DNA of 60,692 bases. It comes from Syntrophobacterales bacterium (GTDB taxonomy: Bacteria > Desulfobacterota > Syntrophia > Syntrophales > CAMTWB01). A program made the translations under genes and the position numbers. Shown here piece after piece: positions 1-31,729 of this stretch. Below the pieces are notes generated by a model. The model was not told the origin of the DNA, did not search any database, and was given only the letters and a program-made list of their open reading frames with translations. Positions within the stretch are counted from its first letter, which is position 1. Each line of letters opens with the position of its first letter. The stretch lies in assembly GCA_037441775.1 (NCBI GenBank), contig JBBIRO010000013.1, positions 1 to 60,692 of the forward strand. The letters run 5' to 3'.

Positions 1-71
1 GCGATGCGGGATTCGAACCCACGACCTCTGGTTCCGGAGACCAGCGCTCTATCCTGCTGAGCTAATCGCCC
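1..71 (-). tRNA. tRNA-Arg (anticodon CCG), 3' end cut by window edge
   Basis: The reverse complement reads GGGCGATTAGCTCAGCAGGATAGAGCGCTGGTCTCCGGAACCAGAGGTCGTGGGTTCGAATCCCGCATCGC. The anticodon stem is CTGGT/ACCAG with loop CTCCGGA (CCG). The T-arm is GTGGG-TTCGAAT-CCCGC. The last acceptor bases lie outside the window. Confidence 0.85.
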
Positions 72-380: not shown

Positions 381-468
381 GCCTGGGTGGCGGAATAGGT
401 AGACGCAAGGGACTTAAAATCCCTCGGTCCTTGAGGCTGTGAGGGTTCGATTCCCTCCCCAGGCACCA
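381..468 (+). tRNA. tRNA-Leu (anticodon UAA), long variable arm, CCA encoded
   Basis: The acceptor GCCTGGG pairs with CCCAGGC. The anticodon stem is AGGGA/TCCCT with loop CTTAAAA (UAA). The variable arm is CGGTCCTTGAGGCTGT and the T-arm is GAGGG-TTCGATT-CCCTC, followed by ACCA. Confidence 0.9.
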
Positions 469-8026: not shown

Positions 8027-8758
8027 TCAATAATCGTCCTGTTCCAGCCGAAAGATATAACTCAAGGCAAGACCGCTTAGGTAAGTGATCCCGCCGCTCC
8101 AGACGACATCACTGATGAAATGGCCTCCCTGTACTATTCTCCCCAGTCCCATGAAAGAGCCGTAGGCGATCCCCAGGGCAAGAAAAGCGCTGGCTGGCCG
8201 ATGATGCTTCCGGCGGAGAAAAAAATAGGGTGCAAAAAGATAAAAACCCACCGAGGCATGGCCGGAAGGGAACGACTTTCCTTGCCCCGCCTTTCCTGGT
8301 TGCCAGCAGGGTTGATACAGCGATTCGCCGCCGAAATTTACAATATCCGCCGGTCGCGCTCTTCCCCAGTGGTCTTTGAATATCGTATTGATCAACAGCC
8401 CCGGTCCGACAAGCAGAAATACAACAATAAATAGCGCAATTTTTCGGTAATGGAGAAATTTTTTGTAAAAAAAACTAAGAACAAAAATCGCGAGACCGCC
8501 CATGGCCAAAGCAAAAGCCGGAATCATTCCGTAATGGTAACTGAAATACCAGGGGTTACTCTGAGCCAGATACCAGCCCTCTGCGGTGATATAGAAGAGA
8601 CCCGATAAAAGTAGATCGGCGTCGGTTGTGGCGATTAAAAAAGTAGCCGCCGCAAGCAAGAGTATCGGCAGGAGAAAACGAACCCAATGAGGATGGAGGG
8701 CTTTTATCCAGGTGCTCATTTTTACCGGCGGATCTTTTTTTGCGGGCGTCAAAAACAT
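8027..8758 (-). CDS. PAP2-family membrane phosphatase
   Basis: 243 aa and polytopic. The PAP2 motifs 'KDHWGRARP', 'PSGH' and 'GRIVQGGHFISD' are present. An alternative start is Met14. Confidence 0.85.
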   Translation of the reverse strand: MFLTPAKKDPPVKMSTWIKALHPHWVRFLLPILLLAAATFLIATTDADLLLSGLFYITAEGWYLAQSNPWYFSYHYGMIPAFALAMGGLAIFVLSFFYKKFLHYRKIALFIVVFLLVGPGLLINTIFKDHWGRARPADIVNFGGESLYQPCWQPGKAGQGKSFPSGHASVGFYLFAPYFFLRRKHHRPASAFLALGIAYGSFMGLGRIVQGGHFISDVVWSGGITYLSGLALSYIFRLEQDDY

Positions 8759-9194: not shown

Positions 9195-10217
9195 ATGAAG
9201 GAAACGATATTTACGGCGGCTTCGGGATCAACGGCAGAGATAGTTCCAGCCTTGAGGAGGACTTTAGAGCAAATTAGTCTTCCCTACGGGCCGGGCGATC
9301 GGGTGGGGATAAAGCTGCATTGGGGAGAGAAGGGGAACCGGACATTCCTGGCTGCGGACTATGCCCGGGAAGCGTCCCGCTTTCTTATTGATCGGGGCAT
9401 GAAACCATTTGTCTTGGATACCACGGTGCTCTATTCGGGGGGACGCCGCAGTGGGGCCGATTCTCTTAAAACAGCGGCGGAACATGGCTACACGGAGGAT
9501 TATCTTGGTTGTCCGGTGATTATTGCCGATGGTTTAGACGGCCGGGAAATAAGCGATATTCCTGCCGGCTACAAGCACTTTAAAACCGTGCAAGTGGCCA
9601 ATGCAGTCCAAAGTTTGGACGCTTTTCTTATCCTAAGCCATTTCAAGGGGCATATGGTTTCCGGTTTCGGCGGGGCGATAAAAAACATCTCCATGGGGTT
9701 GGCATCCCGGGCGCAGAAACAGCGGATGCATTCTGATGCGCGACCTACGTTGAACCAGAAGAAGTGCAGCCGCTGCGGGGTTTGTATTGAAGTCTGCCCT
9801 GTCGGGGCGGGGAGAATGGATGATGGTTCCTTCCCCCTGTATGACCTTAAGGTCTGTACCGGCTGTGCCCAGTGCATTGCCATGTGCCCGGAGCTCGCCC
9901 TGCGCGTTCTTTGGGGAACCGACATCCACGTCTTTCAGGAGAAGCTGGTCGAGACGGCCGCCGCCGTATGGCGGCTGATTGAAAAAAAGACGGTGCTGAT
10001 TAATATGCTTCTCAACATCACTGCGGAATGCGATTGTCTCACCGGCCAGCATCCCCGGATCTCCCCTGATCTGGGAATCATCGGCGGGTATCACCCCGTT
10101 GCGATCGATGAGGAGTCTGTAAACAGGGTTGGTTTTAGCATAATCGACCAGGCGCACCCGGGGATTCCCTGGCGCCATCAGTTCAGCTATGCCCGCTCAA
10201 TTGGCTGTAAACCTTGA
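9195..10217 (+). CDS. DUF362-type protein with 2x[4Fe-4S] ferredoxin insert
   Basis: 340 aa. Two CxxCxxCxxxCP motifs are present (CSRCGVCIEVCP, CTGCAQCIAMCP) inside a DUF362-like core ('SHFKGHMVSGFGGAIKN'). Confidence 0.7.
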   Translation: MKETIFTAASGSTAEIVPALRRTLEQISLPYGPGDRVGIKLHWGEKGNRTFLAADYAREASRFLIDRGMKPFVLDTTVLYSGGRRSGADSLKTAAEHGYTEDYLGCPVIIADGLDGREISDIPAGYKHFKTVQVANAVQSLDAFLILSHFKGHMVSGFGGAIKNISMGLASRAQKQRMHSDARPTLNQKKCSRCGVCIEVCPVGAGRMDDGSFPLYDLKVCTGCAQCIAMCPELALRVLWGTDIHVFQEKLVETAAAVWRLIEKKTVLINMLLNITAECDCLTGQHPRISPDLGIIGGYHPVAIDEESVNRVGFSIIDQAHPGIPWRHQFSYARSIGCKP

Positions 10218-10229
10218 GGACTGAGCCGC

Positions 10230-11036
10230 ATGTTCAATGGAAGACCCTGCCGCCAATGTATTTTCGTTTTAGTATTCCTGGTGGCGGGCTTTTTTCCCGT
10301 TCCCGATGCGTCGGGCAAGAATTTTGGCGAAAAGAGATACCGATTTCGAATAATCAACAGCTATCCGCATGATGCCAATGCCTTCACCCAGGGTCTGATC
10401 TTCCATGACGGCGCCTTGTATGAGGGGACCGGTCTTTACGGCCGGTCATCTTTAAGAAAAGTAGCCCTGGCCACGGGGCAGGTGGAGCAGATTCACCATT
10501 TGGGAGCAGGTTTTTTTGGCGAAGGGATCGCTATTTGCCAGGGCCGGCTTTACCAGTTGACCTGGCAGTCGCGTATTGGCTTCATTTATGAACCCAGGAC
10601 CTTTCGCAAGATCGGCAGTTTTGCCTATGACACTGAAGGCTGGGGGTTAACCTGCGACGGCAGGCAGCTCATAATGAGTGACGGCACAAATTTATTGCGA
10701 TTTTTGGACTTGAAGACGATGGGGGTGGTGAGAACCCTGGCGGTGAAGGCTGAAGGGGGGCCGCTTGCCAACTTAAATGAGTTGGAATATGTTAAGGGTG
10801 AGATATACGCCAACATCTGGAATGCGGACCTCATTGCCCGAATATCGCCTCGCAGCGGCCGGGTGCTGGGCTGGATCGATCTTTCCGGTTTGAGAGCCAT
10901 GCTGGGCAACAGCGGTCGGCCGGAAGCCTTAAACGGTATTGCCTACGATGAAAAGGGAGACCGACTATTTGTGACCGGTAAGCTGTGGCCGAAAATCTTC
11001 CAAATTGAATTGGTGCCCGCATGGAAAGAAGAGTAG
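10230..11036 (+). CDS. glutaminyl-peptide cyclotransferase (beta-propeller, plant/bacterial type), exported
   Basis: 268 aa. A hydrophobic N-terminal signal-like segment is followed by 'YPHDANAFTQGLIFHDGALYEGTGLYGRS', characteristic of this glutaminyl cyclase (QC) family. Confidence 0.7.
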   Translation: MFNGRPCRQCIFVLVFLVAGFFPVPDASGKNFGEKRYRFRIINSYPHDANAFTQGLIFHDGALYEGTGLYGRSSLRKVALATGQVEQIHHLGAGFFGEGIAICQGRLYQLTWQSRIGFIYEPRTFRKIGSFAYDTEGWGLTCDGRQLIMSDGTNLLRFLDLKTMGVVRTLAVKAEGGPLANLNELEYVKGEIYANIWNADLIARISPRSGRVLGWIDLSGLRAMLGNSGRPEALNGIAYDEKGDRLFVTGKLWPKIFQIELVPAWKEE

Positions 11037-12418
11037 AATATAGCGTAACGCAACTAAACGCTGCGATCAGGGAACTTCTGGAGGCGGGCTTCAGTCGAGT
11101 TTTCGTTATGGGTGAGGTATCGAATCTTCGCCGTCCCGCCTCCGGGCACGTTTATTTTACTCTCAAGGACGACAAAAGTCAGATTCGGGCGGTCCTCTTT
11201 CGTTCCTACAGCCGTAGCAGAAGTGAATCGCCTCTGGGAGATCAGAGTGCCATTTTGGAAGAGGGCGCCGAGATTCTCTGCCTGGGTAGGATCGGCGTTT
11301 ACCAGGAGCGTGGCGAATACCAACTGGTGATCGAATGGCTGGAGCCCCGCGGTTACGGCGCCCTGCAGCGGGCCTTTGAAAAGCTCAAGATGCAACTCGA
11401 GCAGGAAGGGCTTTTCGCCAAGAAATTCAAAACCCCTCTGCCTTTTCTACCCCGTGCGATTGGGGTGGTGACATCACCTACCGGAAGCGTCATCCGGGAC
11501 ATTCTCCAGATAACCAAAAGGCGATATCCAAACATGGATATTTACATCGCTCCCACCCGGGTTCAGGGTTCCGGAGCGGCAGAAGAGATAGTCCGGGCGC
11601 TTGCGGCTATAGAAGAGGTCGCCGCAGTGGAGGTGATCATCCTGGCCAGGGGCGGCGGTTCATTGGAGGATCTAGCGTCTTTTAATGACGAACGGGTGGC
11701 CAGGGCCATTTTTGCCTGCCGTGTTCCCGTGGTTTCGGCAGTCGGTCACGAAACCGATTATACTATTGCCGATTTTGTCGCCGACCTCCGGGCGCCGACA
11801 CCCTCGGCTGCTGCGGAAATGGTAGTGCCGATGAGGCGGGATCTGGCGAAAGAACTCTTGGATCACAGGTCTTGTCTGGTCAATGGCATGAGCAGGCTTA
11901 TCCAGGGGCTAGAAGAGAGACTAGCCCGGGCCAGGGAGCATCTGAGGAACCCAAGACGCATCATAGAGGAGGAGCGCCTGCACCTTGACGATCGCTCTGA
12001 GATGATCCTGATGCTCTGTCGGAAGCGCTTGGACCTGGAAAGAAAGAACACCGAGAACCTGCATCTTAGGCTGGAGCATAAATCGCCGATGTCGGTTGCT
12101 GTCCAGGGCAAGAATATGCTTGAAATGATCAAAAGCAATATGATAGGCGCCCTTGGCTCGGCTTTGGCGATGAAACGAGCGGCTATGAGCTCCAAACTGT
12201 CCTTAATCAACAACTTGAATCCTCTTGCGGTGTTAATGCGGGGCTACAGTATCGCCACGACCTGTCCGGATGGGCTTATCTTGAAGGATTCAAGCCGGCT
12301 GGAAAGAGAAGACAAGGTGCAGGTGCAGCTCGCCCGGGGGAGATTCGAGGCGAAGGTTACGAAGATATTTAAGGATGTTGAAAATGGCCAAGGAAAAATA
12401 CGAAGAGGCGCTGGCTAA
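11021..12418 (+). CDS. xseA: exodeoxyribonuclease VII large subunit
   Basis: 465 aa. The N-terminal OB-fold is 'SVTQLNAAIRELLE...VMGEVSN...SGHVYFTLKD', followed by 'GVVTSPTGSVIRDI' and 'LARGGGSLEDL'. The xseB gene follows. Confidence 0.9.
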   Translation: MERRVEYSVTQLNAAIRELLEAGFSRVFVMGEVSNLRRPASGHVYFTLKDDKSQIRAVLFRSYSRSRSESPLGDQSAILEEGAEILCLGRIGVYQERGEYQLVIEWLEPRGYGALQRAFEKLKMQLEQEGLFAKKFKTPLPFLPRAIGVVTSPTGSVIRDILQITKRRYPNMDIYIAPTRVQGSGAAEEIVRALAAIEEVAAVEVIILARGGGSLEDLASFNDERVARAIFACRVPVVSAVGHETDYTIADFVADLRAPTPSAAAEMVVPMRRDLAKELLDHRSCLVNGMSRLIQGLEERLARAREHLRNPRRIIEEERLHLDDRSEMILMLCRKRLDLERKNTENLHLRLEHKSPMSVAVQGKNMLEMIKSNMIGALGSALAMKRAAMSSKLSLINNLNPLAVLMRGYSIATTCPDGLILKDSSRLEREDKVQVQLARGRFEAKVTKIFKDVENGQGKIRRGAG

Positions 12419-12614
12419 GCTGGAAGAAATCGTAGCCAGAATGACCCAGGGAGACCTGCCCTTGGATGACATGCTGAAGTCGTTTGAAGAGGGTATCCGG
12501 CTGGCGCGGGTCTGCGCCAAAAAACTGGATGAAGCCGAACGAAGGGTGCAGTTAATTTTGAAAGAAGATGGCGAAAACGTATTAAAACCCTTCCGGGAGG
12601 AAGAAATTGAGTGA
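12375..12614 (+). CDS. xseB: exodeoxyribonuclease VII small subunit
   Basis: 79 aa with 'YEEALAKLEEIVARMTQGDLPLDDMLKSFEEGIRLARVC', typical of XseB. Confidence 0.9.
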   Translation: MLKMAKEKYEEALAKLEEIVARMTQGDLPLDDMLKSFEEGIRLARVCAKKLDEAERRVQLILKEDGENVLKPFREEEIE

Positions 12615-13521
12615 CTCAAATTCCTTCAGCCTGGAATCATACCTGCGCGAAAAGAAAATAATTGTCGAGCAGGCCCTGACCAGGTATCTGGATTACGAAG
12701 ACCGCCACCCGGCGATCATCTTTGAGGCAACCCGCTACAGCCTGTTTGCCGGCGGTAAAAGGATCAGGCCGATCCTTTGTATCGCCGCCTGGGAAGCCTT
12801 GGGCGGCGGCGGGGGTGATGACGATATTTTGCCGGCGGCCTGCGCCCTGGAGATGATCCACAGCTATTCTCTCGTTCATGATGATCTTCCGGCGATGGAT
12901 AATGACGATTTGCGCCGGGGCGTTCCCACCAGCCACCGCGTCTTTGGCGAGGATATTGCCATTCTTGTCGGCGACGCGCTGCTTACCGGGGCTTTCGAGC
13001 TTCTCTCAAGGCCGGACTTGATGGCGGGCATCGCTTTGGCAACAAGGTTAAAGGTAATTAACATTATTTCTATTGCTGCCGGCATGAACGGCCTGATCGG
13101 CGGCCAGGTACTGGATCTGAAATCCGCAGGGCAAAAGATAGCGCTCGCAACCCTTGAGCAAATGCACAATCTTAAAACCGGAGCGCTGATTGCCGCATCC
13201 CTTAAGGTAGGCGCGCTGCTGGCGGGTGGCGATACGGCGTCAATCGATGCTTTGACCCGTTTTGGGCAGCGGATCGGCCTGACATTTCAGATCAGCGATG
13301 ATCTCCTGAATGTCGAGGGAGACAGGGCGCTCATGGGTAAAAATACCGGCAGTGACGTCCAGCGGGGCAAGGCGACATTTCCCGGCCTGCTTGGTTGTGA
13401 CGAATCCAGGAAACTGGCCTCAAGGCTCACTGAGGAGGCGGTTGCCTGTTTGGCGGGATTTGACAGTAAGGCCGATCCCTTGCGAAAGTTGGCCCGGTTT
13501 ATAGTTGAGAGGAAATTTTAA
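12607..13521 (+). CDS. ispA: (2E,6E)-farnesyl diphosphate synthase / polyprenyl synthetase
   Basis: 304 aa with the two Asp-rich motifs 'LVHDDLPAMDNDDLRRG' and 'FQISDDLLN'. It sits in the conserved xseB-ispA-dxs order. Confidence 0.85.
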   Translation: MSDSNSFSLESYLREKKIIVEQALTRYLDYEDRHPAIIFEATRYSLFAGGKRIRPILCIAAWEALGGGGGDDDILPAACALEMIHSYSLVHDDLPAMDNDDLRRGVPTSHRVFGEDIAILVGDALLTGAFELLSRPDLMAGIALATRLKVINIISIAAGMNGLIGGQVLDLKSAGQKIALATLEQMHNLKTGALIAASLKVGALLAGGDTASIDALTRFGQRIGLTFQISDDLLNVEGDRALMGKNTGSDVQRGKATFPGLLGCDESRKLASRLTEEAVACLAGFDSKADPLRKLARFIVERKF

Positions 13522-13526
13522 TCCAT

Positions 13527-15437
13527 ATGACGCAAAAAACGTTAACGGGCATTCTGGGCTCGGTTGACAGCCCCGAAGATATCCGGCGATTGGACCTGAC
13601 GGGATTGAACCTGCTGGCCCAGGAGATACGCCAAATGATCATTGACACCGTATCAGCTCACGGCGGCCATCTTTCCTCGTCGCTGGGCACGGTGGAACTT
13701 ACCTTGGCCCTTCATCATGTATTTTCGACGCCGGAAGACCGACTTATCTGGGACGTGGGACATCAGGCTTACGCCCACAAGATTATCACCAAAAGGAAGG
13801 ATCTATTCCACTCCTTGCGTCAAAAGGGAGGGATCAGCGGGTTCCCCCGTCGCGAAGAGAGTCCCTATGACGTCTTCAATGTTGGTCACAGTGGCACTTC
13901 CATATCGGCCGCAGCGGGAATTGCGGAAGCCCGTTGCCTGAAGAAAGAAAACTTTAAAGTGCTGGCGGTGATTGGCGACGGTTCAATGGGCTCCGGTATG
14001 GCCTTTGAGGCGCTGAACTGGTCCGGGGATCGGAAAAAAAACCTTATCATTGTCCTCAACGATAACGAGCTTTCAATTTCGCCCAATGTGGGCGCCCTAT
14101 CGTCATACCTCAACCGGATCATGACCGCCCAGCGAGTTACTAAATTTAAAAGCGACTTAAAGACGCTGCTCCGATCGATCCCCTTTGTCGGCCGGCAGAT
14201 GGTAAATTTTTCCCGGCAGCTCGAAGAGGCCTTCAAATCCTTCCTGGTGCCCGGAGTCATCTTCGAAGAGCTGGGGTTTACCTACGTTGGGCCATTGGAG
14301 GGCCATAGGCTGGATAACCTGATCAAGAACTTTGAGAACATCCGTGAGATGTCCGGGCCGGTTTTAGTTCATGTCGTAACCAGGAAGGGGAAGGGTTATA
14401 AGTTTGCCGAGGATGATCCGCAGAAGTTTCATGGCATTGGGCCATTTAACAGGGAAACCGGCGCTGTCCTTTCCTCCAAAACGGCAATTGCCAGTTATAC
14501 CAGGATTTTTGGGGATACTCTGGTTAGCCTGGCCCGGCAAAACCCCGCCCTTGTGGCTATTACGGCGGCCATGTGTGAGGGAACCGGCCTGGATTCCTTT
14601 GCGCGGGAATTTCCCGAGCGTTTTTATGATGTGGGAATTGCGGAGCAGCACGCGATAACCTACGCCGCCGGTCTGGCGGTGGAATCTGTTGTTCCGGTGG
14701 TGGCCATCTATTCCACTTTTATGCAGCGGGGCTATGACCAGATCATCCACGATGTCTGCCTGCAGAAGCTGCCGGTCGTGCTGGCGCTGGATCGCGCCGG
14801 AATTGTCGGCGCCGATGGACCGACGCACCATGGATTGTTCGACCTGTCCTTCCTGCGGTCGCTGCCCAATATCATCATCATGGCTCCCAAGGATGAAAAT
14901 GAGCTGCGGCACATGCTCAAAACTGCCGTGGAATCGGGAGGGCCGGTCGCTATCCGGTACCCACGGGGAGCGGGGGTTGGCGTGCCCCTGGATGAGGAAC
15001 TGCGGCATTTGCCCTGCGGCCGGGGGGAAATAATTACCCAGGGGGAAGCCCTGGCGATCATCGCCATCGGCTCTACCGTGTATCCGGCGCTGGCCGCGGC
15101 GGAAAAACTGTCCGGCCAGGGAGTGAAGGTGACGGTAATAAATGCGCGTTTCGTCAAACCTCTGGATGAAGAGCTGATCCTGTCTGCCGCGCGGACCCAC
15201 CAGAAGATCATCACGATTGAAGAGAACGTCCTTGCGGGCGGTTTCGGCAGCGCCGTGGTGGAGCTTTTGGCCGATCAGGGATTAACGCCGGTCGTTGTCA
15301 AGAGAATGGGTATTCCCGACGAGTTTGTCGAGCAGGCCACTCAGGAAGAGTTGCGCCGGCAATACCGACTGGATGAGGCAGGCATTGTTGCGACCGTACT
15401 GGAAACGCTTGCGGACGGCGGCGGCGGGCAGTCATAA
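13527..15437 (+). CDS. dxs: 1-deoxy-D-xylulose-5-phosphate synthase
   Basis: 636 aa with 'GGHLSSSLGTVELT', the TPP motif 'GDGSMGSGMAFEALN', and transketolase-like central and C-terminal domains. Confidence 0.95.
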   Translation: MTQKTLTGILGSVDSPEDIRRLDLTGLNLLAQEIRQMIIDTVSAHGGHLSSSLGTVELTLALHHVFSTPEDRLIWDVGHQAYAHKIITKRKDLFHSLRQKGGISGFPRREESPYDVFNVGHSGTSISAAAGIAEARCLKKENFKVLAVIGDGSMGSGMAFEALNWSGDRKKNLIIVLNDNELSISPNVGALSSYLNRIMTAQRVTKFKSDLKTLLRSIPFVGRQMVNFSRQLEEAFKSFLVPGVIFEELGFTYVGPLEGHRLDNLIKNFENIREMSGPVLVHVVTRKGKGYKFAEDDPQKFHGIGPFNRETGAVLSSKTAIASYTRIFGDTLVSLARQNPALVAITAAMCEGTGLDSFAREFPERFYDVGIAEQHAITYAAGLAVESVVPVVAIYSTFMQRGYDQIIHDVCLQKLPVVLALDRAGIVGADGPTHHGLFDLSFLRSLPNIIIMAPKDENELRHMLKTAVESGGPVAIRYPRGAGVGVPLDEELRHLPCGRGEIITQGEALAIIAIGSTVYPALAAAEKLSGQGVKVTVINARFVKPLDEELILSAARTHQKIITIEENVLAGGFGSAVVELLADQGLTPVVVKRMGIPDEFVEQATQEELRRQYRLDEAGIVATVLETLADGGGGQS

Positions 15438-15467: not shown

Positions 15468-16220
15468 ATGGAGAAAATAGCCAGGGAAAGATTGGATAGG
15501 CTTCTGGTTAATATCCAGGCGGCGCGGGACATTCAAAAGGCTAAGGCGTTGATTATGGCCGGCGTGGTGCTGGTGGATGACAGCAGGATTGATAAACCTG
15601 GTGCCCTCGTGCCGCTAACCGCCGTCATCAGGGTTCTGGGAGATGTGAATCCCTATGTCAGCCGCGGCGGATTGAAACTCAAGGGAGCCATGAAGAGTCT
15701 GTCTGTCGATGTGCGGGGCTTGACGGTTCTTGATGTCGGAGCCTCCACCGGCGGCTTTACCGACTGCCTGCTTAAGGAAGGTGCAAAACTGGTGTACGCC
15801 CTGGACGTGGCTTACGGTCAGCTTGCCTGGGAGCTTAGATCCGACAGCCGGGTGGTGGTTATCGAAAGGACAAATATCCGTCATTACGACGGCAGGGAGA
15901 TAACCGGGCCGGTCGATTTGGTCACCATAGATGTATCCTTTATTTCTCTCAAGGTTGTGATTCCGTCGGCACTGCGGTTCGTAAGGCCCGGAGGAAAGAT
16001 TTTAGCGCTGATCAAGCCTCAGTTCGAGGCCGGCCGAAAGGAAGTTGAAAAAAGCGGGGTGATCAGGGATCACGCCGTCCACCGGCGGGTCAGCGAAGAA
16101 ATTATTGAATTGATCAGCGATTTGGGTCTTAAATTCATGGGAACTTGCGAATCGGCGATTGTTGGCCCTCAGGGCAACAAGGAATTTTTTATTCTCGCCC
16201 GGGTCCCAGGGGAAAGATGA
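15468..16220 (+). CDS. tlyA: TlyA-family rRNA 2'-O-methyltransferase
   Basis: 250 aa. An S4-like N-terminus ('RLDRLLV') is joined to an FtsJ-type SAM motif 'VLDVGASTGGFTD'. Confidence 0.85.
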   Translation: MEKIARERLDRLLVNIQAARDIQKAKALIMAGVVLVDDSRIDKPGALVPLTAVIRVLGDVNPYVSRGGLKLKGAMKSLSVDVRGLTVLDVGASTGGFTDCLLKEGAKLVYALDVAYGQLAWELRSDSRVVVIERTNIRHYDGREITGPVDLVTIDVSFISLKVVIPSALRFVRPGGKILALIKPQFEAGRKEVEKSGVIRDHAVHRRVSEEIIELISDLGLKFMGTCESAIVGPQGNKEFFILARVPGER

Positions 16221-17962
16221 TGGATATTGCTCCTTTAGGCGTCAGGTTGGCAAAAACGGCGGGCTTCTGCATGGGAGTTAAGCGGGCGGTGGATATGGCC
16301 CTCGATATGTCCCGGCAAAAACGTTATGGTCGCGTCTGCAGCTATGGCCCGTTGATCCACAACCCCCAGACCATGGAACTCCTCAAGGCTCAGGGGATAA
16401 CGATTCTCAATGACCTCGCGCCGGTTAAGGGAGAGGATGTTGTGATCATCATCAGGGCGCACGGAATCGCCCCCGCGGAGAGAAAGAAGATCGAGAACAT
16501 GGGCTTCGAGGTGCTCGATGCCACCTGTCCGCGGGTGGCCCATGTGCAGGCCATAATCCGGAAGCACTCGAGAAACGGCTATGATATTGTCATTGTTGGA
16601 GACCACGACCATCCCGAAGTTAATGGGCTGATTGGGTATGCCGAAGGGCGGGTGATGGTAATAAGCGGTCGGGAGGGGGTGGCGGGCCTGCCGGAGACAG
16701 GCCGGTTGTGCGTAGTCGCCCAGACTACCCAGGATGTAGAGCAATACAACGAGATAATCAGTGAAATAAAATTGAAGCATCGTGACGTCCGTGCCTTCGA
16801 CACCATCTGTGATTCTACCGCCAAGAGACAACAGGAAGTATGCACCCTGGCCAAAGAGATGGAAGCCATGATTATCGTGGGCGGAAAAAACAGCGCCAAT
16901 ACCAAAAGGCTGGCCGAACTTTGCGAAAAAGAGGGGGCGGATACCTTTCAAATCGAAACAGCCCTCGAATTAGACGACAAGAAGATGGGCGCCTATAAAA
17001 AAATTGGTATTTCCGCCGGGGCATCCACGCCGAACTGGATCATTGATCAGGTGATGGACCGGGTTGTATCCACGCACCAGACAGGAAATCTGAATTTGCG
17101 GTCTTTACTTCGACTCTGGGTATGGTTAATCAATAATGACATCTATGCCGCAATAGGAGCCGCCGCGCTGACCCTGGCCGGGGCCACGTTAATTGGCGCC
17201 CGGATCAGCGCGCCGGTTCTCCTTGTCGCCTCCCTGTATGTTTATGGGATGCACACCCTCAATCGCCGTATCAATAGTCGGATCAGCGGTGCTCCTGGTT
17301 CGCCTGCCGGCGATCTGCACTCCGGGCGAGACAGAGGCTGCCTTTTTTTCTCCCTGGCTGCGCTGACAACCTCGATGGTTATTGCTTTATTCCTCGGCAG
17401 CGAGTCTTTTTTGCTGTTGCTCGCCATTTCCCTTATGGGCGTGTTGTATCATGTGCCGATCTTCCCCGCTGTTTTCAGGTTCAGGAGCATCAAAGATATA
17501 GCCGGCTCGAAAAATGTATCCATGGCGCTGGCCTGGTCTACGGTGGCCGTGGTACTGCCTGGCCTCCAGCAGGAGGTGATCTCGCTTGCGGCGGTTGTCG
17601 TTTCATTTACGTTTGTCACCTATATCGTCTTCAGCAGATCGGTTATTTCAGATATCTGGGATATCCAGAGCGACCGGCTCAAGGGCCAGGAAACCATGCC
17701 GGTGGTGCTGGGAATCGATTCTGTCCGCCGCCTGATTTTAATCCTTTCACTTCCCGTACTCTTCTTGGTTATTGGGGCGGGATTAGCCGGCCTGGTTCCC
17801 GGGCTCTCCTTTTATCTTGCGGCTTGTCTTTTTTATGTATGGATTTGTTTGAGGCTTTGTGATAGAGCGCTCAACATTTCAAACTTCGTTATGGAAGGCC
17901 TGCTGGAAACAAATTATTTTTTGGCGGGCTTAGTGACGCTGATGTGGCTTTACTTTGCCTGA
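16217..17962 (+). CDS. ispH: 4-hydroxy-3-methylbut-2-enyl diphosphate reductase (IspH) fused to a C-terminal UbiA-like polytopic membrane domain
   Basis: The start ATG 16217 overlaps the tlyA stop (ATGA). The N-terminal ~285 aa is IspH ('AGFCMGVKRAV', 'ATCPRV', 'GGKNSANTKRL', 'GASTPNW'). The C-terminal ~300 aa is hydrophobic and carries 'SDIWDIQSDRLKGQETMPVVLG' (UbiA motif 2). Confidence 0.8.
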   Translation: MMDIAPLGVRLAKTAGFCMGVKRAVDMALDMSRQKRYGRVCSYGPLIHNPQTMELLKAQGITILNDLAPVKGEDVVIIIRAHGIAPAERKKIENMGFEVLDATCPRVAHVQAIIRKHSRNGYDIVIVGDHDHPEVNGLIGYAEGRVMVISGREGVAGLPETGRLCVVAQTTQDVEQYNEIISEIKLKHRDVRAFDTICDSTAKRQQEVCTLAKEMEAMIIVGGKNSANTKRLAELCEKEGADTFQIETALELDDKKMGAYKKIGISAGASTPNWIIDQVMDRVVSTHQTGNLNLRSLLRLWVWLINNDIYAAIGAAALTLAGATLIGARISAPVLLVASLYVYGMHTLNRRINSRISGAPGSPAGDLHSGRDRGCLFFSLAALTTSMVIALFLGSESFLLLLAISLMGVLYHVPIFPAVFRFRSIKDIAGSKNVSMALAWSTVAVVLPGLQQEVISLAAVVVSFTFVTYIVFSRSVISDIWDIQSDRLKGQETMPVVLGIDSVRRLILILSLPVLFLVIGAGLAGLVPGLSFYLAACLFYVWICLRLCDRALNISNFVMEGLLETNYFLAGLVTLMWLYFA

Positions 17963-17986: not shown

Positions 17987-18577
17987 ATGAGAAGAAGACG
18001 TATCTTTTTCCTGATGATTATTTTTTTAGCCGCGGTCTTTGCCGGCTGCGGCGCCGGGAGCTTTTTTAGTGCCTCGTCCGAGAAGGGGGAGTCTTCGCCA
18101 GGCAAAGTTGCTGTCTTTCCCGCTGAAGCCATGGAAAACGCGGCGGCCGGGGCGGCGGTCGAGAACATTTTGGTGGAGCTGATGGCGGCCGCCAAGAGCG
18201 AGGTAATAAGCCCCCTGATCTTGCGCCCTAAGCTAAGCGGCGGGGATCTGCAGCGGTTGGCCGGCGAGTACATCCGGAAGCTTTCTATCCTCAACTTCTC
18301 CGATCCGGAGCTGAGCAAAAAGATAGGGGAGACCCTTGAAATTGATGCCTTTTTATTGCCAAAGGTAGAATACTGGGGCTACTCCAAAAAAGAAGATGGT
18401 AAAGATATCGCAAAAATCGGCATTGGATTGATCCTGATCGAGGCAAAAACCGGCCGGGTGCTATGGCGGGCAATTAAATACGAAAGCAGGGAGTATTTGT
18501 TGTTGAAACCGGCATTGGCCGACGTAGCACGCGACCTCTTGAAAAAGATGGTCAACGAGATGGGGACGACAAAGTAG
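17987..18577 (+). CDS. hypothetical lipoprotein
   Basis: 196 aa with signal peptide and lipobox 'LAAVFAGC'. I recognise no family. Confidence 0.6.
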   Translation: MRRRRIFFLMIIFLAAVFAGCGAGSFFSASSEKGESSPGKVAVFPAEAMENAAAGAAVENILVELMAAAKSEVISPLILRPKLSGGDLQRLAGEYIRKLSILNFSDPELSKKIGETLEIDAFLLPKVEYWGYSKKEDGKDIAKIGIGLILIEAKTGRVLWRAIKYESREYLLLKPALADVARDLLKKMVNEMGTTK

Positions 18578-26267: not shown

Positions 26268-27572
26268 GTGGAAATAAAAAAATTTCACCTGAAATACGGG
26301 AAGGGCGAAGTGGAATTTGAAATACCGGCCTCCCGGTTCTATTACGAAGTCCTGGGCAGGGAATATCCCGCTATTGCCGACGTTTCCCAGGCGGTACGGG
26401 ATGCTTTGAATCACCCGATAGATGCGCCGCCGCTTAAGGAAATTTTGAAACCATCCGATCGGGTGGTAATCTCCGTAAGCGATATTACCAGGATTTGGCA
26501 GCGGATGGATCTCGTCCTGCCGCAGCTTATCGCGACTGTCAATGCCGCCGGGGTGCCCGACGAAAACATCACCATTATCGTTGCCGTAGGAGGTCATCGT
26601 CACAACACGCCGGAAGAAATCTGCCAAATCTGCGGCCGGGATCTAGCGGAGCGGATCAAGGTCGTCAATCACGATGCCTATGATTCTGAAAACATGGTTT
26701 ACCTTGGGAAAACCAGTCGCGGCACCGAAGTTGCCGTCAATCGGATCGCCGCCGAGGCCGACCGGCTGATCCTTACCGGCGGCATCATTTACCATTATAT
26801 GGTTGGCTATGGCGGCGGCAGAAAAAGCGTCCTGCCGGGAATAGCCTCAATTAAGACCATCCAGCAGAATCATCTTTGGGCGCTGGGACCGACGTTGGGT
26901 TCCGGGGCCAACCCCAATTCCCAGTCCGGCAAAACCCGCGGCAGCGAATGCCACGAAGACATGATGGAGATCACCGCTTTCGTCCAGCCGGACTTTATCC
27001 TGAATGTCGTTCCCAATCCCCAGGGGGAGTTTGCCGGAGTATTCGCGGGCAATTGGGTTTCCGCTTGGCAGGAGGGAACGAAGCTGGTGGACCATATTTA
27101 TGCTGTTCCAACCCCCGGCCGGGCCGATATCGTAATTGCCTCGGCGGGAGGATTTCCCAAGGATATCAACCTATACCAGACTGGTAAGACTTTCGACAAC
27201 GCCTACTGGGCGGTGAAAGAAGGGGGAGCCGTCATCATTGTCAGCGAGTGCCCGGACATTCTCGAACCGCTGGAATTTTCCCAGTGGTTCGAGTATTCAT
27301 CACTGCTCGAAATAGAAAGGGCGCTTCGTGACAACTTCACTATTCCCGGCTGGGTGGCGTGGAAGGCTTTGGAATGCACCGAGCGGGCGGCCTGTATCAT
27401 GATGACCAGGCCGGAAAATGCCGATTTTTTAAAAAAAGCAAATATCATGGCTACTGCGAGCATGGATGAGGCGCTGGCAATGGCATATCGGCTATGCGGG
27501 AAGAAGGAGCCCACGATAACCGTCATGCCCCAATGCGCCAATACTCTACCGATATTGAGCCAGGTGTCGTGA
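26268..27572 (+). CDS. LarA-family nickel-pincer-dependent 2-hydroxyacid racemase/epimerase homologue
   Basis: 434 aa with a GTG start. It has 'VISVSDITRIW', 'AVGGHRHNTPEE', 'IYHYMVGYGGGRKSVLPG' and 'QQNH'. These align by eye with the LarA SDxTR, catalytic His, NPN-tethering Lys and Ni-binding His. Confidence 0.75.
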   Translation: MEIKKFHLKYGKGEVEFEIPASRFYYEVLGREYPAIADVSQAVRDALNHPIDAPPLKEILKPSDRVVISVSDITRIWQRMDLVLPQLIATVNAAGVPDENITIIVAVGGHRHNTPEEICQICGRDLAERIKVVNHDAYDSENMVYLGKTSRGTEVAVNRIAAEADRLILTGGIIYHYMVGYGGGRKSVLPGIASIKTIQQNHLWALGPTLGSGANPNSQSGKTRGSECHEDMMEITAFVQPDFILNVVPNPQGEFAGVFAGNWVSAWQEGTKLVDHIYAVPTPGRADIVIASAGGFPKDINLYQTGKTFDNAYWAVKEGGAVIIVSECPDILEPLEFSQWFEYSSLLEIERALRDNFTIPGWVAWKALECTERAACIMMTRPENADFLKKANIMATASMDEALAMAYRLCGKKEPTITVMPQCANTLPILSQVS

Positions 27573-27608
27573 CAGTCAATCCCGGCGCCGAAATTAAAAA
27601 GGAGGAAA

Positions 27609-28607
27609 ATGATGAAAAGGTATTTTGCAATTTTTGTTTTTGCAGCTGTGGCCGCCCTGCTTTCTATCGGCCTGACCCAGCCTCAAGAGGCCCTGGCCCA
27701 GGGTAAGATGGTTCTTAAGGCCGGCAGTTCAACCGCGGAGACGCATCCCTACAATCTGGGGCTCAAAAGGTTTAAGGAACTGGTGGAAAAAGAAACCGGC
27801 GGCAGAATAGAAATCCAGATATTCCATAGCAGCGCCCTGGGAGCGGAGAGGGAACTGGCGGAGGGGATGCAGATCGGCAGCGTCGATGTGGTTATTTCTT
27901 CCACCGGTCCCCTGGGGGGCTTCGTTCCCCGGATGAACGTCGTGGATCTGCCCTTTTTGTTTCGCGATAAGGCCCACGCCTATAAGGTTCTGGACGGCCC
28001 CATCGGCGCCTCTCTTCTGACTGAACTGGAGAAACGAAACATTATCGGGCTTGCCTTCTGGGAAAACGGCTTTCGTCATGTGACCAACGCTCGAAGGGAA
28101 ATCAAGACCCCGGCCGATTTGAAAGGGCTGAAGCTGCGCACCATGGAAAACCGGGTGCATATGGCTGCCTTCCGCCAGCTTGAGTCCTCGCCCACGCCGA
28201 TGGCCTTCTCCGAGGTCTTTACGGCGCTGCAGACCAGAACTCTCGATGGCCAGGAAAATCCGATACCGGTCATCTTCACCTCGCGTTTTTACGAGGTCCA
28301 GAAATTTCTGTCGCTGACCGGACATGTCTACTCGCCGGCTCCGCTGATGGTCAGCAAACACACCTGGGACCGGCTTACGGAAGAGCAAAAAACGATCTTT
28401 AGAAAGGCGGCGCTTGAGGCCCGTGATTATGAAAGGGATCTGATAACCAGGCAGGAAAACGAACAGGTGGATAAATTGAAGGCCGCCGGAATGACCGTGA
28501 CGCAGGTTGACAAATCGCTTTTCCAGCGGGCAACCCTGCCGGTTTACGCCCAATTTGAGGCGGAATTCGGCAAGGACTTAATAGAGCGCATCGTTAACAC
28601 CAAATAA
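27609..28607 (+). CDS. TRAP transporter substrate-binding protein (DctP family)
   Basis: 332 aa with a signal peptide ending 'EALAQG'. DctP-type 'LRTMENRVHMAAFRQLESSPTPMAFSEVFTALQTRTLDGQENP' is present. Confidence 0.9.
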   Translation: MMKRYFAIFVFAAVAALLSIGLTQPQEALAQGKMVLKAGSSTAETHPYNLGLKRFKELVEKETGGRIEIQIFHSSALGAERELAEGMQIGSVDVVISSTGPLGGFVPRMNVVDLPFLFRDKAHAYKVLDGPIGASLLTELEKRNIIGLAFWENGFRHVTNARREIKTPADLKGLKLRTMENRVHMAAFRQLESSPTPMAFSEVFTALQTRTLDGQENPIPVIFTSRFYEVQKFLSLTGHVYSPAPLMVSKHTWDRLTEEQKTIFRKAALEARDYERDLITRQENEQVDKLKAAGMTVTQVDKSLFQRATLPVYAQFEAEFGKDLIERIVNTK

Positions 28608-28633
28608 AACCAAAGTCCGCTGCGCCATTTTAG

Positions 28634-28666
28634 CCTGTCCCTCCGGCAAGGAGGGACAGGTGTTTC
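28634..28666 (+). terminator. perfect 11-bp hairpin between the TRAP binding-protein and permease genes (attenuator/stabiliser)
   Basis: CCTGTCCCTCC (28634..28644), loop GGCAA, GGAGGGACAGG (28650..28660), then TGTTTC. Confidence 0.5.
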
Positions 28667-28712
28667 ATCGTCGGCAGAGCTGAAGCAGGAGGGCCTTATC
28701 GTACTTAAATAT

Positions 28713-29174
28713 TTGAAAATCATGGAGTTGGTAAATCTTATCGTCACCTGGTTGGTCGCAGTAATCCTGGGAACGATGTCGGTGGTGGTATTTTCACAGG
28801 TGATCTACCGCTATGTACTGGAATCCCCCCTGCCCTGGTCGGAGGAACTGGCCCGCTACCTGATGGTATGGCTGGTATTATTAGGCGCCTCCCTGGGCCT
28901 GCGCTCGAAAGCCCTTATCGGAATGGAGGCACTGATAAACGTTTTTCCCGCGCCGCTGAAAAGATTTTCCGTCGAGGCGGTTTTAGTTTTCTCGCTCATG
29001 TTTCTTGCCGTAGTAATGATTTATGGAATAAAGCTCACCATTATGAATCACGCTCAGGTCTCCCCGGCAATGGGAATTCCCATGTCCTTGCCTTATGCGG
29101 CAATCCCGGTGGGTGCGCTGCTCATGATCGCCAATGCGCTGGTGGTGGCCATAGAAAGGTGGAAAAAAGAGTAG
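28713..29174 (+). CDS. TRAP transporter small permease (DctQ family)
   Basis: 153 aa with 4 TM segments and a 'SEELARYLMVWLVLLG' DctQ-type motif. The start is TTG 28713 or ATG 28722. Confidence 0.85.
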   Translation: MKIMELVNLIVTWLVAVILGTMSVVVFSQVIYRYVLESPLPWSEELARYLMVWLVLLGASLGLRSKALIGMEALINVFPAPLKRFSVEAVLVFSLMFLAVVMIYGIKLTIMNHAQVSPAMGIPMSLPYAAIPVGALLMIANALVVAIERWKKE

Positions 29175-30458
29175 ATGGCGACAACCCTCATCTTGTCTCT
29201 GATAGGTTTTTTCCTAATCAACCTGCCAATTGCCTTCTCCCTGGGGGCGGCGGCAACCCTGACCATAATTCTTCAGGGGCAGGTGCCACCCACTTTAATC
29301 CCCCAGCGGATGTTCGCGGCCATTGATTCCTTTCCCCTGATGGCCATTCCCTTCTTTGTTCTGGCGGGCAACCTGATGGGCTCCGGCGGGATTTCAAAAA
29401 GGCTGATCAATTTTGCCACCTGTCTGATCGGTAAGACGACGGGCGGTCTCGCCGTGGTAACCGTCGCCACCTGCATGTTTTTCGCCGCCATTTCCGGCTC
29501 CAGCGCGGCAACGGCGGCGGCGATAGGAACCATTTTAATTCCGGCAATGGTGCAGCACCGTTATTCAGTAAATTTTGCGGGCGCCACCGTAGCCTCTTCC
29601 GGCGAGCTGGGAGTTATCATCCCGCCCAGCATCCCCATGGTTCTCTTTGGCGTCATGGCCGGCCAGTCCATCGGCACCATCTTTATCGCCGGCTTTCTCC
29701 CGGGAATCATGATCGCGTTAACCCTGATGCTGACCGCCTACATTATTTCCCGGATCAAGGGCTACGCCGGCACAAAAAAGGCCTCCGCCCGGGAAACGTG
29801 GCGGGCATTCAAAGACGCGCTGCTGGCCCTGTTGATGCCGGTTATCATTCTGGGAGGAATATACGGCGGCATCTTTACACCAACTGAAGCGGCGGTAGTG
29901 GCAGTTTTCTACGGATTTTTGGTGGGCAGCATCGTGTATCGCGAGATTAACATCTACAATATCAAAAACATCCTGGTCAATTCAGCCATAACCACCGCCA
30001 CCATAATGATTATCATCTCCACCGCCTCCACCTTCGGTTGGATAATGACCAGGGAGAGGATTCCGATTATGATCGCCGAGACATTTCTGGCGATCACGGC
30101 GAACCCGGCGGTCTTTCTGCTTTTGGTAAATCTCCTGCTCCTTTTTATCGGAACAATCTTTGAAACGTCGGCCGCGTTGATTATTCTAACCCCGCTGCTC
30201 TTTCCCATCGCGGTTCAGCTTGGCGTACACCCCATTCACTTCGGCATGATCATGATCGTCAATCTCGCGGTAGGCATGGTTACGCCTCCTTTGGGGATAA
30301 ACCTTTTTGTCACCTGCAATATCGCCAAAATACGGATCGAGGACATGGCTGGATACCTGCTGCCTTATCTGCTGGTGCTTATCGCCAACATCTTCATAAT
30401 AACATACATCCCGCAGATAACGCTGTGGCTGCCAACTGTTCTGGGGATGTTTGACTAA
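29175..30458 (+). CDS. TRAP transporter large permease (DctM family)
   Basis: 427 aa and polytopic. It starts 1 nt after the dctQ stop. 'AIPFFVLAGNLM' and 'SGSSAATAAAIG' are DctM signatures. Confidence 0.9.
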   Translation: MATTLILSLIGFFLINLPIAFSLGAAATLTIILQGQVPPTLIPQRMFAAIDSFPLMAIPFFVLAGNLMGSGGISKRLINFATCLIGKTTGGLAVVTVATCMFFAAISGSSAATAAAIGTILIPAMVQHRYSVNFAGATVASSGELGVIIPPSIPMVLFGVMAGQSIGTIFIAGFLPGIMIALTLMLTAYIISRIKGYAGTKKASARETWRAFKDALLALLMPVIILGGIYGGIFTPTEAAVVAVFYGFLVGSIVYREINIYNIKNILVNSAITTATIMIIISTASTFGWIMTRERIPIMIAETFLAITANPAVFLLLVNLLLLFIGTIFETSAALIILTPLLFPIAVQLGVHPIHFGMIMIVNLAVGMVTPPLGINLFVTCNIAKIRIEDMAGYLLPYLLVLIANIFIITYIPQITLWLPTVLGMFD

Positions 30459-30466
30459 GGACGTTT

Positions 30467-31726
30467 ATGATCCCTCCCCTTGCCGTTGTGGAGCAGACCC
30501 TGCCGGGTGAGTCAATTTCAGACCTGCCCTTCGCGGTGAACCGGGAACTGTCCCGGATGAATCTGGAAACTAAAATAACCGCCGGTATGACTGTTGCCAT
30601 TACCGCCGGCAGCAGGGGAATTCACCGGATTGATGAGATTATCAGGCAGGTTGTCATCCAGGTCAGGGCCCTGGGAGGGCGGCCTTTTATTGTCCCGGCG
30701 ATGGGCAGCCACGGCGGGGCGACGGCTGTGGGCCAGGTTGAACTTCTGCGGGAGCTGAATGTCACCGCCGAATCAGTGGGAGCGCCCGTCGTCTCTTCCC
30801 TGGAAGTGGTTCAAATCGGCTCAACCGATTGCGGACTGCCCGTTTACATTGACAGCCATGCCGCCCGGGCCGGCGGAATAATCGTCATTGCGCGAATTAA
30901 GCCGCATACGGATTTCAGAAATTACCTCGAAAGCGGCCTCCAGAAGATGCTGGTCGTGGGCCTGGGCAAGCACAAGCAGGCATTGGCGATTCACCGCTTC
31001 GGCGTGGAGGGACTGAAAAAATTCATAAATCCCGCGGCGCGAGTTGTTCTGGAGAAAACCCCGGTTTTAATGGGATTGGCGGTAATTGAAAATGGACGCG
31101 ACCAAACAGCAAAAGTCGTCGCGCTTAAACCTGACGAAATCGAGGAGCAGGAACCCACGCTGCTCAATGAGGCCCGATCATTGCTGCCCAGGCTGCCTTT
31201 TTCCGAGATTGACATTCTGGTAGTGGAAAAACTCGGAAAGGACATCAGCGGCACCGGAATGGACACCAACATCATCGGGCGGGTCGGCATTCCTGGTGTG
31301 GCTGACTTTGGTGACCTCAAGGCGAGATACATTGTTGTTTTGAGGTTAAGCGAGGCGTCCCACGGCAATGCCCTGGGGATTGGATTGGCCGATTTTACCA
31401 CCGAACGGGTCAGAAACGCGATTGATTATCCGGTGATGCGAGAAAACGTCATAACCAGCACTTTCGTTGAACGTGGCAAGATTCCCCTGGCCTTTCCCAG
31501 TGACCGCGCCGCCATCGAGGCCGCCTTGCGCTGCGTCTGGAATTGCGATCCGCTAAGCACCCGGATTGTATTTATTCGTAACACCAGGGATATTGAGCGC
31601 TTTATGGTCAGCTTCAGCCTGCTTGCGGAATTGCAGGATAAGGCGGGGATCAGGGTTTTGACGCCCTCGAGGGAACTTTCTTTCGATGACACCGGGAATC
31701 TCCCGCCGGAGCTGATTCCTTTTTGA
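30467..31726 (+). CDS. divergent LarA N-terminal-domain (DUF2088-like) protein
   Basis: 419 aa. 'MTVAITAGSRGI', 'IVPAMGSHGGAT' and 'ARIKPHTDF...GLGKHKQA' parallel the LarA layout, but the SDxTR motif is absent. Confidence 0.5.
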   Translation: MIPPLAVVEQTLPGESISDLPFAVNRELSRMNLETKITAGMTVAITAGSRGIHRIDEIIRQVVIQVRALGGRPFIVPAMGSHGGATAVGQVELLRELNVTAESVGAPVVSSLEVVQIGSTDCGLPVYIDSHAARAGGIIVIARIKPHTDFRNYLESGLQKMLVVGLGKHKQALAIHRFGVEGLKKFINPAARVVLEKTPVLMGLAVIENGRDQTAKVVALKPDEIEEQEPTLLNEARSLLPRLPFSEIDILVVEKLGKDISGTGMDTNIIGRVGIPGVADFGDLKARYIVVLRLSEASHGNALGIGLADFTTERVRNAIDYPVMRENVITSTFVERGKIPLAFPSDRAAIEAALRCVWNCDPLSTRIVFIRNTRDIERFMVSFSLLAELQDKAGIRVLTPSRELSFDDTGNLPPELIPF

Positions 31727-31729
31727 GCC

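Follow-up and report, generated by a model that had tools for sequence, protein, structure and literature searches.

Fusions of IspH with a UbiA-like membrane domain were described in 2015 as 'Rosetta stone' proteins, on the basis of 47 sequences (Rao, O'Dowd, Li, Wang, Oldfield, Chem Sci 6:6813; PMC4746011). The authors reported a UbiA domain with 'two DXXXD repeats' and hosts that were 'all sulfate-reducing anaerobes', could not express the full-length fusion protein, and proposed that the fusion tethers IspH to the membrane and supplies a prenyl-handling partner (PMC4746011). No functional work on the IspH-UbiA fusion after 2015 was found in the literature. IspH catalyses the final step of isoprenoid-precursor synthesis in bacteria; it is essential and serves as a drug target. 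Little is understood of how anaerobes couple the output of the MEP pathway to the use of isoprenoids in their membranes.

We analysed a stretch of 60,692 nucleotides (the window), in which a gene at 16217..17962 on the plus strand is, by homology, the ispH of an uncultured Syntrophales bacterium and a member of the described IspH-UbiA fusion family. Like the published proteins it joins an N-terminal IspH to a C-terminal UbiA-like domain of about nine transmembrane (TM) helices in one polypeptide of ~580 aa, it comes from the anaerobic Deltaproteobacteria / Desulfobacterota, and its C-terminal half aligns end to end with non-Syntrophales members at 27-32% identity. The earlier note on this DNA had suggested that the fusion was not a described architecture; this claim falls with the 2015 publication (PMC4746011), with the presence of the fusion in hundreds of species genomes and with many database copies. 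The window protein departs from the published description in that it carries only the second of the 'two DXXXD repeats', most Syntrophales fusions lacking the first-motif carboxylates, and in its placement directly after ispA-dxs-tlyA, which is confined to the Syntrophales. The host may differ as well: the nearest genomes among the matches listed belong to Smithellaceae, Syntrophus and Syntrophaceae. These groups are syntrophic fermenters, not sulfate reducers as stated in the paper. The closest relative among the matches listed is a Smithellaceae MAG, and no record of an exact copy of the window protein was found in public assemblies. What is new here, as read from the alignments, is a Syntrophales lineage without one of the two metal-binding aspartate motifs; the rest of the fusion was already known.

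The open reading frame and its IspH half

The fusion is encoded by a single ORF of 581 aa, which, as the earlier note had it, starts at ATG 16217 in an ATGA overlap with the tlyA stop; the stop codon lies at 17960-17962. The first ~285 aa had been taken for a complete-looking IspH/LytB, and the comparisons bear this assignment out. Residues 9-283 (16241..17065, plus strand), which lie on the cytoplasmic side, match PF02401 (LYTB; E 2.7e-91, 306 bits, GA 24.5) and TIGR00216 (285.7 bits against a cut-off of 187.85), and Foldseek recovered the trefoil alpha/beta fold (3DNF, E 1.9e-21, TM 0.84, 41% identity). In the alignment to 3DNF and E. coli IspH the [4Fe-4S] ligands C18, C104 and C198 correspond to E. 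coli C12, C96 and C197, and the catalytic and substrate residues H48, H82, H132, E134, T170/T171, S226/N228 and S270 are all present (E. coli H41, H74, H124, E126, T167, S225/N227 and S269). Across an alignment of 82 sequences C198 never varies and C104 hardly ever does. Judged by these residues, the N-terminal half amounts to an intact [4Fe-4S] HMBPP reductase. A short linker (aa 284-291, 17066..17089, plus strand) leads from the last IspH helix into TM1 according to the AF2 secondary structure.

By E-value the best NCBIfam hit was the IspH-RPS1 family (NF000907 / PRK00087), which also carries a large C-terminal extension on IspH in anaerobes. Membership was rejected, with 320 bits against a cut-off of 624 and a match to model positions 3-281 of 671 (the IspH part only); the C-terminal half of the window protein is a membrane domain and not a series of S1 repeats.

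Occurrence and gene neighbourhood

Species genomes with the membrane domain numbered at least 106 within Syntrophales and at least 580 outside the order (Desulfobacterales, Nitrospirota, others), and the fusion reaches both Nitrospirota and Nitrospinota. It is therefore far commoner than the original 47 sequences, and its occurrence in Syntrophales, known generally as syntrophs, would take it beyond sulfate reducers. A survey of domain architectures among IspH homologues had been suggested as a check; in two genome scans, of which the best 80 loci each were taken, 159 of 160 loci had the domain joined to IspH, the last one being cut by a contig end, and no stand-alone copy of this UbiA subfamily occurred among these loci. 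On this sampling of sequences the fusion seems obligate for the subfamily, which would never occur alone. A profile search returned 196 representatives with E<1e-30, mostly of ~575-590 aa and matched at ~290-577. The word-indexed homologue search with the C-terminal half alone gave 7 hits only, probably because hydrophobic words swamped it.

Upstream of the fusion, all on the plus strand, lie xseA (11021-12418), xseB (12375-12614), ispA (12607-13521), dxs (13527-15437) and, directly adjacent, a tlyA-like FtsJ methyltransferase gene (15468-16220). The arrangement xseA-xseB-ispA-dxs-tlyA is a common housekeeping one. Its order, with ispH::UbiA in last place, is conserved in Syntrophales loci, where tlyA directly precedes the fusion in 57 of 58 informative cases. 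Directly downstream, also on the plus strand, is a gene for a conserved lipoprotein (17987..18577) with the lipobox FAGC and no Pfam hit, and the same lipoprotein follows the fusion in 69 of 74 Syntrophales loci. The gene had been placed at the end of an isoprenoid cluster. The upstream position of ispA and dxs stands, but 'cluster end' was overstated, as the Syntrophales block runs on into tmk, holB and metG and isoprenoid neighbours are absent outside the order. There the recurrent neighbours are parA/parB, an NYN-like gene, an M48/TPR protease gene, plsY (on the opposite strand) and dusB, none of them isoprenoid-specific. In Syntrophales the fusion follows ispA-dxs-tlyA as part of a conserved housekeeping block.

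Fold and aspartate motifs of the membrane half

Residues 292-581 (17090..17959, plus strand) form the UbiA-fold membrane domain, for which the earlier note had read 8-9 hydrophobic segments over the last ~300 aa and proposed a likeness to the UbiA superfamily. The Pfam match to PF01040 is marginal (36.0-37.8 bits; gathering score 34.2) and takes in no more than positions 63-240 of the 250 in the profile; the same family was matched by 16 of 16 diverse members of the fusion family, with a best E of 7.5e-19. The AF2 model (mean pLDDT 92.9, pTM 0.90) contains nine TM helices with pLDDT above 90, and Foldseek placed it with the UbiA enzymes of A. pernix (4OD4/4OD5) and A. fulgidus (4TQ3/4TQ4) and with DGGGP synthase (7BPU/6M31), at probability 1.00, TM 0.59-0.71 and 15-17% identity; the best values are TM 0.71 for 4OD5 and 0.66 for 4TQ3. 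Both points were thereby borne out. With these archaeal structures the window protein shares the nine-TM UbiA fold, a second DxxxD at the cytoplasmic end of TM6 and, where TM2 ends, a conserved Asn, but it differs from them in its low identity, in the absence of the first-motif aspartates and in its fusion to IspH. Two family-profile HMM searches for an alignment to solved UbiA enzymes gave no true hit to any PDB sequence, even at E≤10. Nor was any curated NCBIfam prenyltransferase family matched above its cut-off: the DGGGPS, MenA and ChlG equivalogs all scored below theirs, and the best score against NF010117 and NF0095xx (DGGGP synthase / archaeal prenyltransferase) was 52 bits against a cut-off of 238.

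The loops carry 6 K+R inside against 1 outside, the N-terminus of the membrane domain being cytoplasmic, and the AF2 model puts the two motif regions where TM2 and TM6 end at the cytoplasm. In the predicted topology IspH and both motif regions of the UbiA domain face the cytoplasm, and the pTM of 0.90 suggests a fixed arrangement of the two domains.

Both observations of the earlier note on the aspartate motifs, a second motif in the membrane half and a first one without aspartates, were confirmed. At the cytoplasmic end of TM2 the remnant of the first motif reads H346-T-L-N349-R-R-I-N353-S-R-I-S357 (17252..17287, plus strand; 'LNRRINSRISG' is aa 348-358). Where N(D)xxDxxxD is expected, the window protein has N349-RRI-N353-SRI-S357, in which the conserved Asn349 alone is kept and no carboxylate stands at N+4 or N+8; the equivalence of N349/N353/S357 with the canonical N/D/D is based on the position at the TM2 end and on the family alignment, not on a residue-level superposition. 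Such a lack of carboxylates is general in the order: D or E at N+4 or N+8 is found in 15 of 79 Syntrophales fusions, compared with 76 of 79 fusions outside it; an intact first motif, as in a Desulfobacterales type, reads 'NHLTDTRAD'. A loop arginine that is otherwise family-wide, Arg364, is absent in the window protein as well. In characterised UbiA enzymes the motif-1 carboxylates bind one of the two Mg2+ ions on which ionisation of the prenyl diphosphate depends, and mutating the first-motif aspartates abolishes activity in UbiA, MenA and COQ2.

The second motif at the end of TM6 is intact as D479-xx-D482-xxx-D486, and together with its loop it reads D479-IW-D482-IQS-D486-RLKG-Q-E492-T493 (17651..17695, plus strand), within 'SDIWDIQSDRLKGQETMPVVLG' (aa 478-499). 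A further conserved motif, G-S431-K432-N (17504..17515, plus strand), lies in cytoplasmic loop 4-5, with a conservation of S431 and K432 of at least 90% throughout the fusion family. The same level of conservation (at least 90%) holds for D479, D486, R474, E492, T493 and Y411, in lineages whose overall identity is no more than about 35-40%, and SDIxDIQSDRLIGRETI is almost invariant within Syntrophales. This degree of conservation argues for a selected binding site and not a mere hydrophobic anchor. 'GSFRE(E/D)' is conserved in loop 2-3 of most Syntrophales members.

Possible roles of the membrane half

The reading we put first, with confidence about evenly balanced, is that the UbiA-like half binds a ligand in the membrane and localises or couples IspH, as a non-canonical and possibly non-catalytic module rather than a standard prenyltransferase. 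The IspH domain would then make IPP and DMAPP as usual, at the membrane surface, and the UbiA-like domain would keep a polar pocket facing the cytoplasm (N349, Y411, S431/K432, R474, D479/D482/D486, E492/T493). Since this selected pocket is retained, ligand binding most likely persists, and the domain probably still binds a diphosphate-bearing or prenyl ligand. With the motif-1 carboxylates and Arg364 gone, a non-canonical module is likelier than a standard prenyltransferase, and canonical prenyltransferase activity of this module appears doubtful. Most of one order does without the first metal-binding motif, yet selection still acts on the remainder of the pocket, which suggests that the domain may have been conserved for something other than canonical prenyl transfer; the 2015 'Rosetta stone' puzzle is sharpened by this, not solved. 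The earlier note also suggested that the fusion ties the last step of the MEP pathway to the membrane and may serve a module that transfers or binds prenyl groups; this is the published idea of Rao et al. and plausible.

An active 'Rosetta stone' prenyltransferase, which would use prenyl diphosphates from local IPP/DMAPP and attach them to a membrane acceptor, is an idea already in print (PMC4746011) that we regard as rather unlikely for the window protein, while still a serious contender. It accords with a UbiA fold in which the second Asp motif, K432, R474, Y411 and the motif-1 Asn349 are intact, and with strong purifying selection on the polar pocket. Most Syntrophales also have the acidic 'FRE(E/D)' of loop 2-3, a possible substitute for the lost carboxylates, so that catalysis may persist in a remodelled form. 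Against these points, the window protein has neither a carboxylate at N+4/N+8 nor Arg364, the Pfam match leaves out the motif-1 part of the profile, all curated prenyltransferase families remain below cut-off, and no acceptor-pathway genes were found near the fusion in the neighbourhood analysis of any lineage examined.

The membrane half might instead be a pseudo-enzyme in the role of a regulatory sensor, binding prenyl diphosphate or phosphate in the membrane and adjusting the fused IspH by allostery, as feedback on the MEP pathway in the manner of UBIAD1 and HMG-CoA reductase. UBIAD1 senses GGPP and controls HMG-CoA reductase in animals. In the UBIAD1-HMG-CoA reductase complex (8DJK) a UbiA-fold membrane protein is likewise physically coupled to a key isoprenoid-precursor enzyme, and the appearance of this complex among the fold matches offers a precedent for a UbiA-fold partner of a pathway-controlling enzyme; the match is weak (Foldseek rank 28, E 0.022) and reflects the shared fold only. 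That complex is moreover non-covalent, eukaryotic and part of the mevalonate pathway, and its UBIAD1 retains both Asp motifs as well as prenyltransferase activity; an analogy in function is speculative. An obligate fusion, the rigid and specific inter-domain arrangement implied by the pTM, and a pocket kept while half of the catalytic metal site is lost would all suit a sensor. The proposal is nevertheless purely inferential, and as the motif-1 carboxylates are kept in nearly all non-Syntrophales members, a pseudo-enzyme role could be lineage-specific at most; we consider it improbable. The version restricted to Syntrophales, in which the UbiA-like half has no prenyl transfer, senses prenyl diphosphate or phosphate through the motif-2/Lys/Arg pocket and throttles the fused IspH allosterically, seems to us a shade less probable again. 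If true, bacteria would possess a covalently linked equivalent of the UBIAD1-HMG-CoA-reductase feedback that operates on the MEP pathway.

Less probable by a clear step is a pure membrane anchor that has wholly lost its ligand function and holds IspH at the membrane, for example near an electron donor. The loss of the motif-1 carboxylates would fit, as would the faster evolution of the C-terminal half, with a pairwise identity of 0.58 against 0.66 for the N-terminal half in Syntrophales and 0.44 against 0.57 elsewhere. An anchor should however keep hydrophobicity and not a charged motif, and the conserved residues listed above, from Y411 to T493, are charged or polar ones of the pocket.

An artefact, in which an assembly or sequencing error made two genes look like one by masking a stop or frameshift between them, can be dismissed with near certainty; read coverage had been named as the check, and no point was found in favour of such an error. 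At the junction, contigs of three independent metagenome runs (X1-X3), which span 16845-17598 and more, show substitutions but neither indels nor joints. The ORF is equally continuous in 159 of 160 related loci, 87 full-length representatives of ~560-600 aa turned up, and the AF2 model is confident over the junction. Public databases hold many full-length copies of the fusion; these ~580-aa proteins are labelled 'IspH' alone and their membrane half goes without a name.

The two halves of the fusion protein

The earlier note had described one ORF starting at ATG 16217, with an ATGA overlap with the tlyA-like stop, and we found this borne out by the ORF listing and the raw sequence: a single open frame of 581 aa (16217-17962, plus strand) closed by the TGA at 17960-17962. 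The N-terminal half, previously called a complete-looking IspH/LytB, is just that. Pfam LYTB covers residues 9-283 (E 2.7e-91), the NCBIfam IspH equivalog TIGR00216 scores over its cut-off, and aligning it with the IspH proteins of E. coli and A. aeolicus (3DNF) located all three cluster cysteines (C18, C104, C198) and the catalytic or substrate-binding residues H48, H82, H132, E134, T170/T171, S226/N228 and S270. In Foldseek this half matches IspH with a TM score of 0.84 and 41% identity.

The suspected UbiA-superfamily membrane domain was likewise recovered. PF01040 (UbiA) matches residues ~372-552 with 36-37.8 bits, barely over the gathering score of 34.2 bits, and only at profile positions 63-240, with the first-Asp-motif stretch outside the match; archaeal-type prenyltransferase and DGGGPS models (NCBIfam) gave weak, sub-threshold matches. 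Foldseek returned a UbiA fold (DGGGP synthase and the UbiA homologues from A. pernix and A. fulgidus; TM score 0.59-0.71, 15-17% identity). PDB searches with family profiles gave no matches to the membrane domain, which is, judged by sequence, too remote for any. The AF2 model, for which 82 sequences of the family were used (mean pLDDT 92.9, pTM 0.90), predicts a linker of ~8 residues followed by nine TM helices, where 8-9 hydrophobic segments had been noted; loop 2-3 (about aa 355-370) is its only weak stretch, and the arrangement of IspH and UbiA fold is confident and apparently fixed. UbiA enzymes carry their two Asp-rich metal-binding motifs at the ends of TM2 and TM6, and given a cytoplasmic IspH these ends are predicted to face the cytoplasm (loop K+R counts 6 inside vs 1 outside). 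An intact IspH is covalently joined to a UbiA-fold membrane domain.

Distribution and genomic context of the fusion

Contigs from three independent metagenome runs on subsurface samples span the junction with substitutions only, 0 indels and 0 joints, and no frameshift or stop lies near it. Two scans of one-genome-per-species collections yielded 160 loci with the membrane domain (best 80 per scan), of which 159 encode the IspH domain in the same ORF, the sole exception (L052) being cut by its contig end. An exhaustive profile search of 1.84 billion representatives gave 196 clusters at E<1e-30, most of 560-600 aa and matching at ~290-577. Because these three lines agree, the fusion is real, old and obligate for its UbiA subfamily, and an artefact behind the single ORF is refuted.

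The note's claim of novelty fails, since both the architecture and its functional idea were already published. Rao et al. 2015 (PMC4746011) described 47 IspH-UbiA hybrids, mainly from Desulfobacterales and classed as PT_UbiA_5, in hosts all said to be sulfate reducers, and proposed that the UbiA domain places IspH at the membrane and profits from local IPP and DMAPP; the full-length protein could not be expressed. We found no functional work on the fusion in the literature after Rao et al. 2015, and full-length members are named merely 'IspH' in public databases. The earlier interpretation is partly supported. The window protein is a new, divergent member of this known family; its modest interest lies in a lineage-specific motif loss, the obligate fusion and a distribution much wider than the 47 sequences reported (PMC4746011).

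The order xseA-xseB-ispA-dxs-tlyA-ispH::UbiA-lipoprotein-nifU-tmk-holB-ricT-metG is almost invariant in Syntrophales, with tlyA directly upstream of the fusion in 57/58 informative loci. The ispA and dxs genes do lie upstream, as noted before, but the block is a housekeeping one and not a dedicated isoprenoid cluster, because xseAB-ispA-dxs-tlyA is widespread in bacteria. A predicted lipoprotein of 196 aa (17987-18577, plus strand; lipobox FAGC in the signal peptide, no Pfam match) starts 25 bp downstream, is found at this position in 69/74 Syntrophales loci and may be co-transcribed with the fusion. Outside Syntrophales the fusion has neighbours such as parAB, dusB, plsY and an NYN-like gene. 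A membrane-lipid gene of another operon, plsY-like (glycerol-3-phosphate acyltransferase), lies within about 80 bp downstream in 25/80 of these loci, mostly on the opposite strand.

Motifs and possible roles of the membrane half

The two peptides quoted in the earlier note lie at aa 348-358 and 478-499. Among 79 Syntrophales and 79 other genome-derived fusions, the residues at least 90% conserved in both sets are H346, N349, R364, Y411, P417, D427, P429, S431, K432, W440, R474, D479, Q484, D486, G490, E492, T493, P495, G499 and E560, which points to purifying selection on the pocket.

Counted from Asn349 (N), the first motif reads N-x3-G-x3-D…NDP or N-x3-D-x3-D…NDP in many Desulfobacterales, N-x3-E-x3-D…DP in Nitrospirota and N-x3-D-x3-(A/S/G)…NDP in other groups. 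D/E at N+4 or N+8 was present in 76/79 non-Syntrophales vs 15/79 Syntrophales fusions, the latter usually having Asn or Ser there and 'GSFRE(E/D)' in place of 'NDP'. The window protein (NRRINSRIS…SPAGD) has no carboxylate at either position, confirming the degenerate first motif, and also lacks R364 and P429. As so few Syntrophales keep a carboxylate, the degeneracy characterises the lineage and is not peculiar to this one protein. The region diverges further in the window protein and L001, a Smithellaceae MAG locus and its nearest relative among those listed (61% identity in the C half, 69% in the N half), than in the rest of Syntrophales. While two DXXXD repeats were stated for the hybrids (PMC4746011), the window protein lacks the first-motif carboxylates. 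With Gly at N+4 in a large group of Desulfobacterales, the statement also fails for much of the family; the carboxylate subsets kept differ from clade to clade among the non-Syntrophales loci. In same-population contigs from other metagenome runs, substitutions cluster at 17278, 17290 and 17295, in the loop after the first motif (17278-17295, aa ~354-360; low-confidence in the AF2 model), which appears to evolve freely in the window's lineage.

We favour a reading in which IspH, sited at the membrane surface, would serve as the housekeeping HMBPP reductase and the membrane half would still bind a diphosphate or prenyl ligand. With the first-motif carboxylates lost in the window's lineage, as the aligned sequences indicate, canonical two-metal prenyl-diphosphate ionisation is unlikely there. 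A remodelled yet active prenyltransferase is conceivable, if rather doubtful; a regulatory sensor, by analogy with UBIAD1-HMGCR, seems improbable, and a pure anchor, disfavoured by the conserved charged motifs, very improbable.

Other genes in the window

The remaining genes are ordinary (DEAD helicase, pyrD, ligA, fusA, TRAP transporters, LarA-like genes). The window edge truncates a tRNA at 1-71 (minus strand), and a tRNA-Leu (anticodon TAA) follows at 381-468 (plus). About 7.5 kb upstream of the fusion lies a PAP2-superfamily phosphatase of 243 aa (8030-8758, minus), a superfamily that includes undecaprenyl-diphosphate phosphatases. Immediately upstream of xseA, at 9195-11036 (plus), a gene for a DUF362 protein that carries an inserted 4Fe-4S ferredoxin domain precedes one for a glutamine cyclotransferase (Glu_cyclase_2). 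The LarA-like cluster (26268-33946, plus) comprises two Lar_N genes (26268-27572 and 30467-31726), an MFS transporter, the DctP and DctM components of a TRAP transporter and an unassigned 315-aa ORF; it may be an uptake locus with 2-hydroxyacid racemase/epimerase function.
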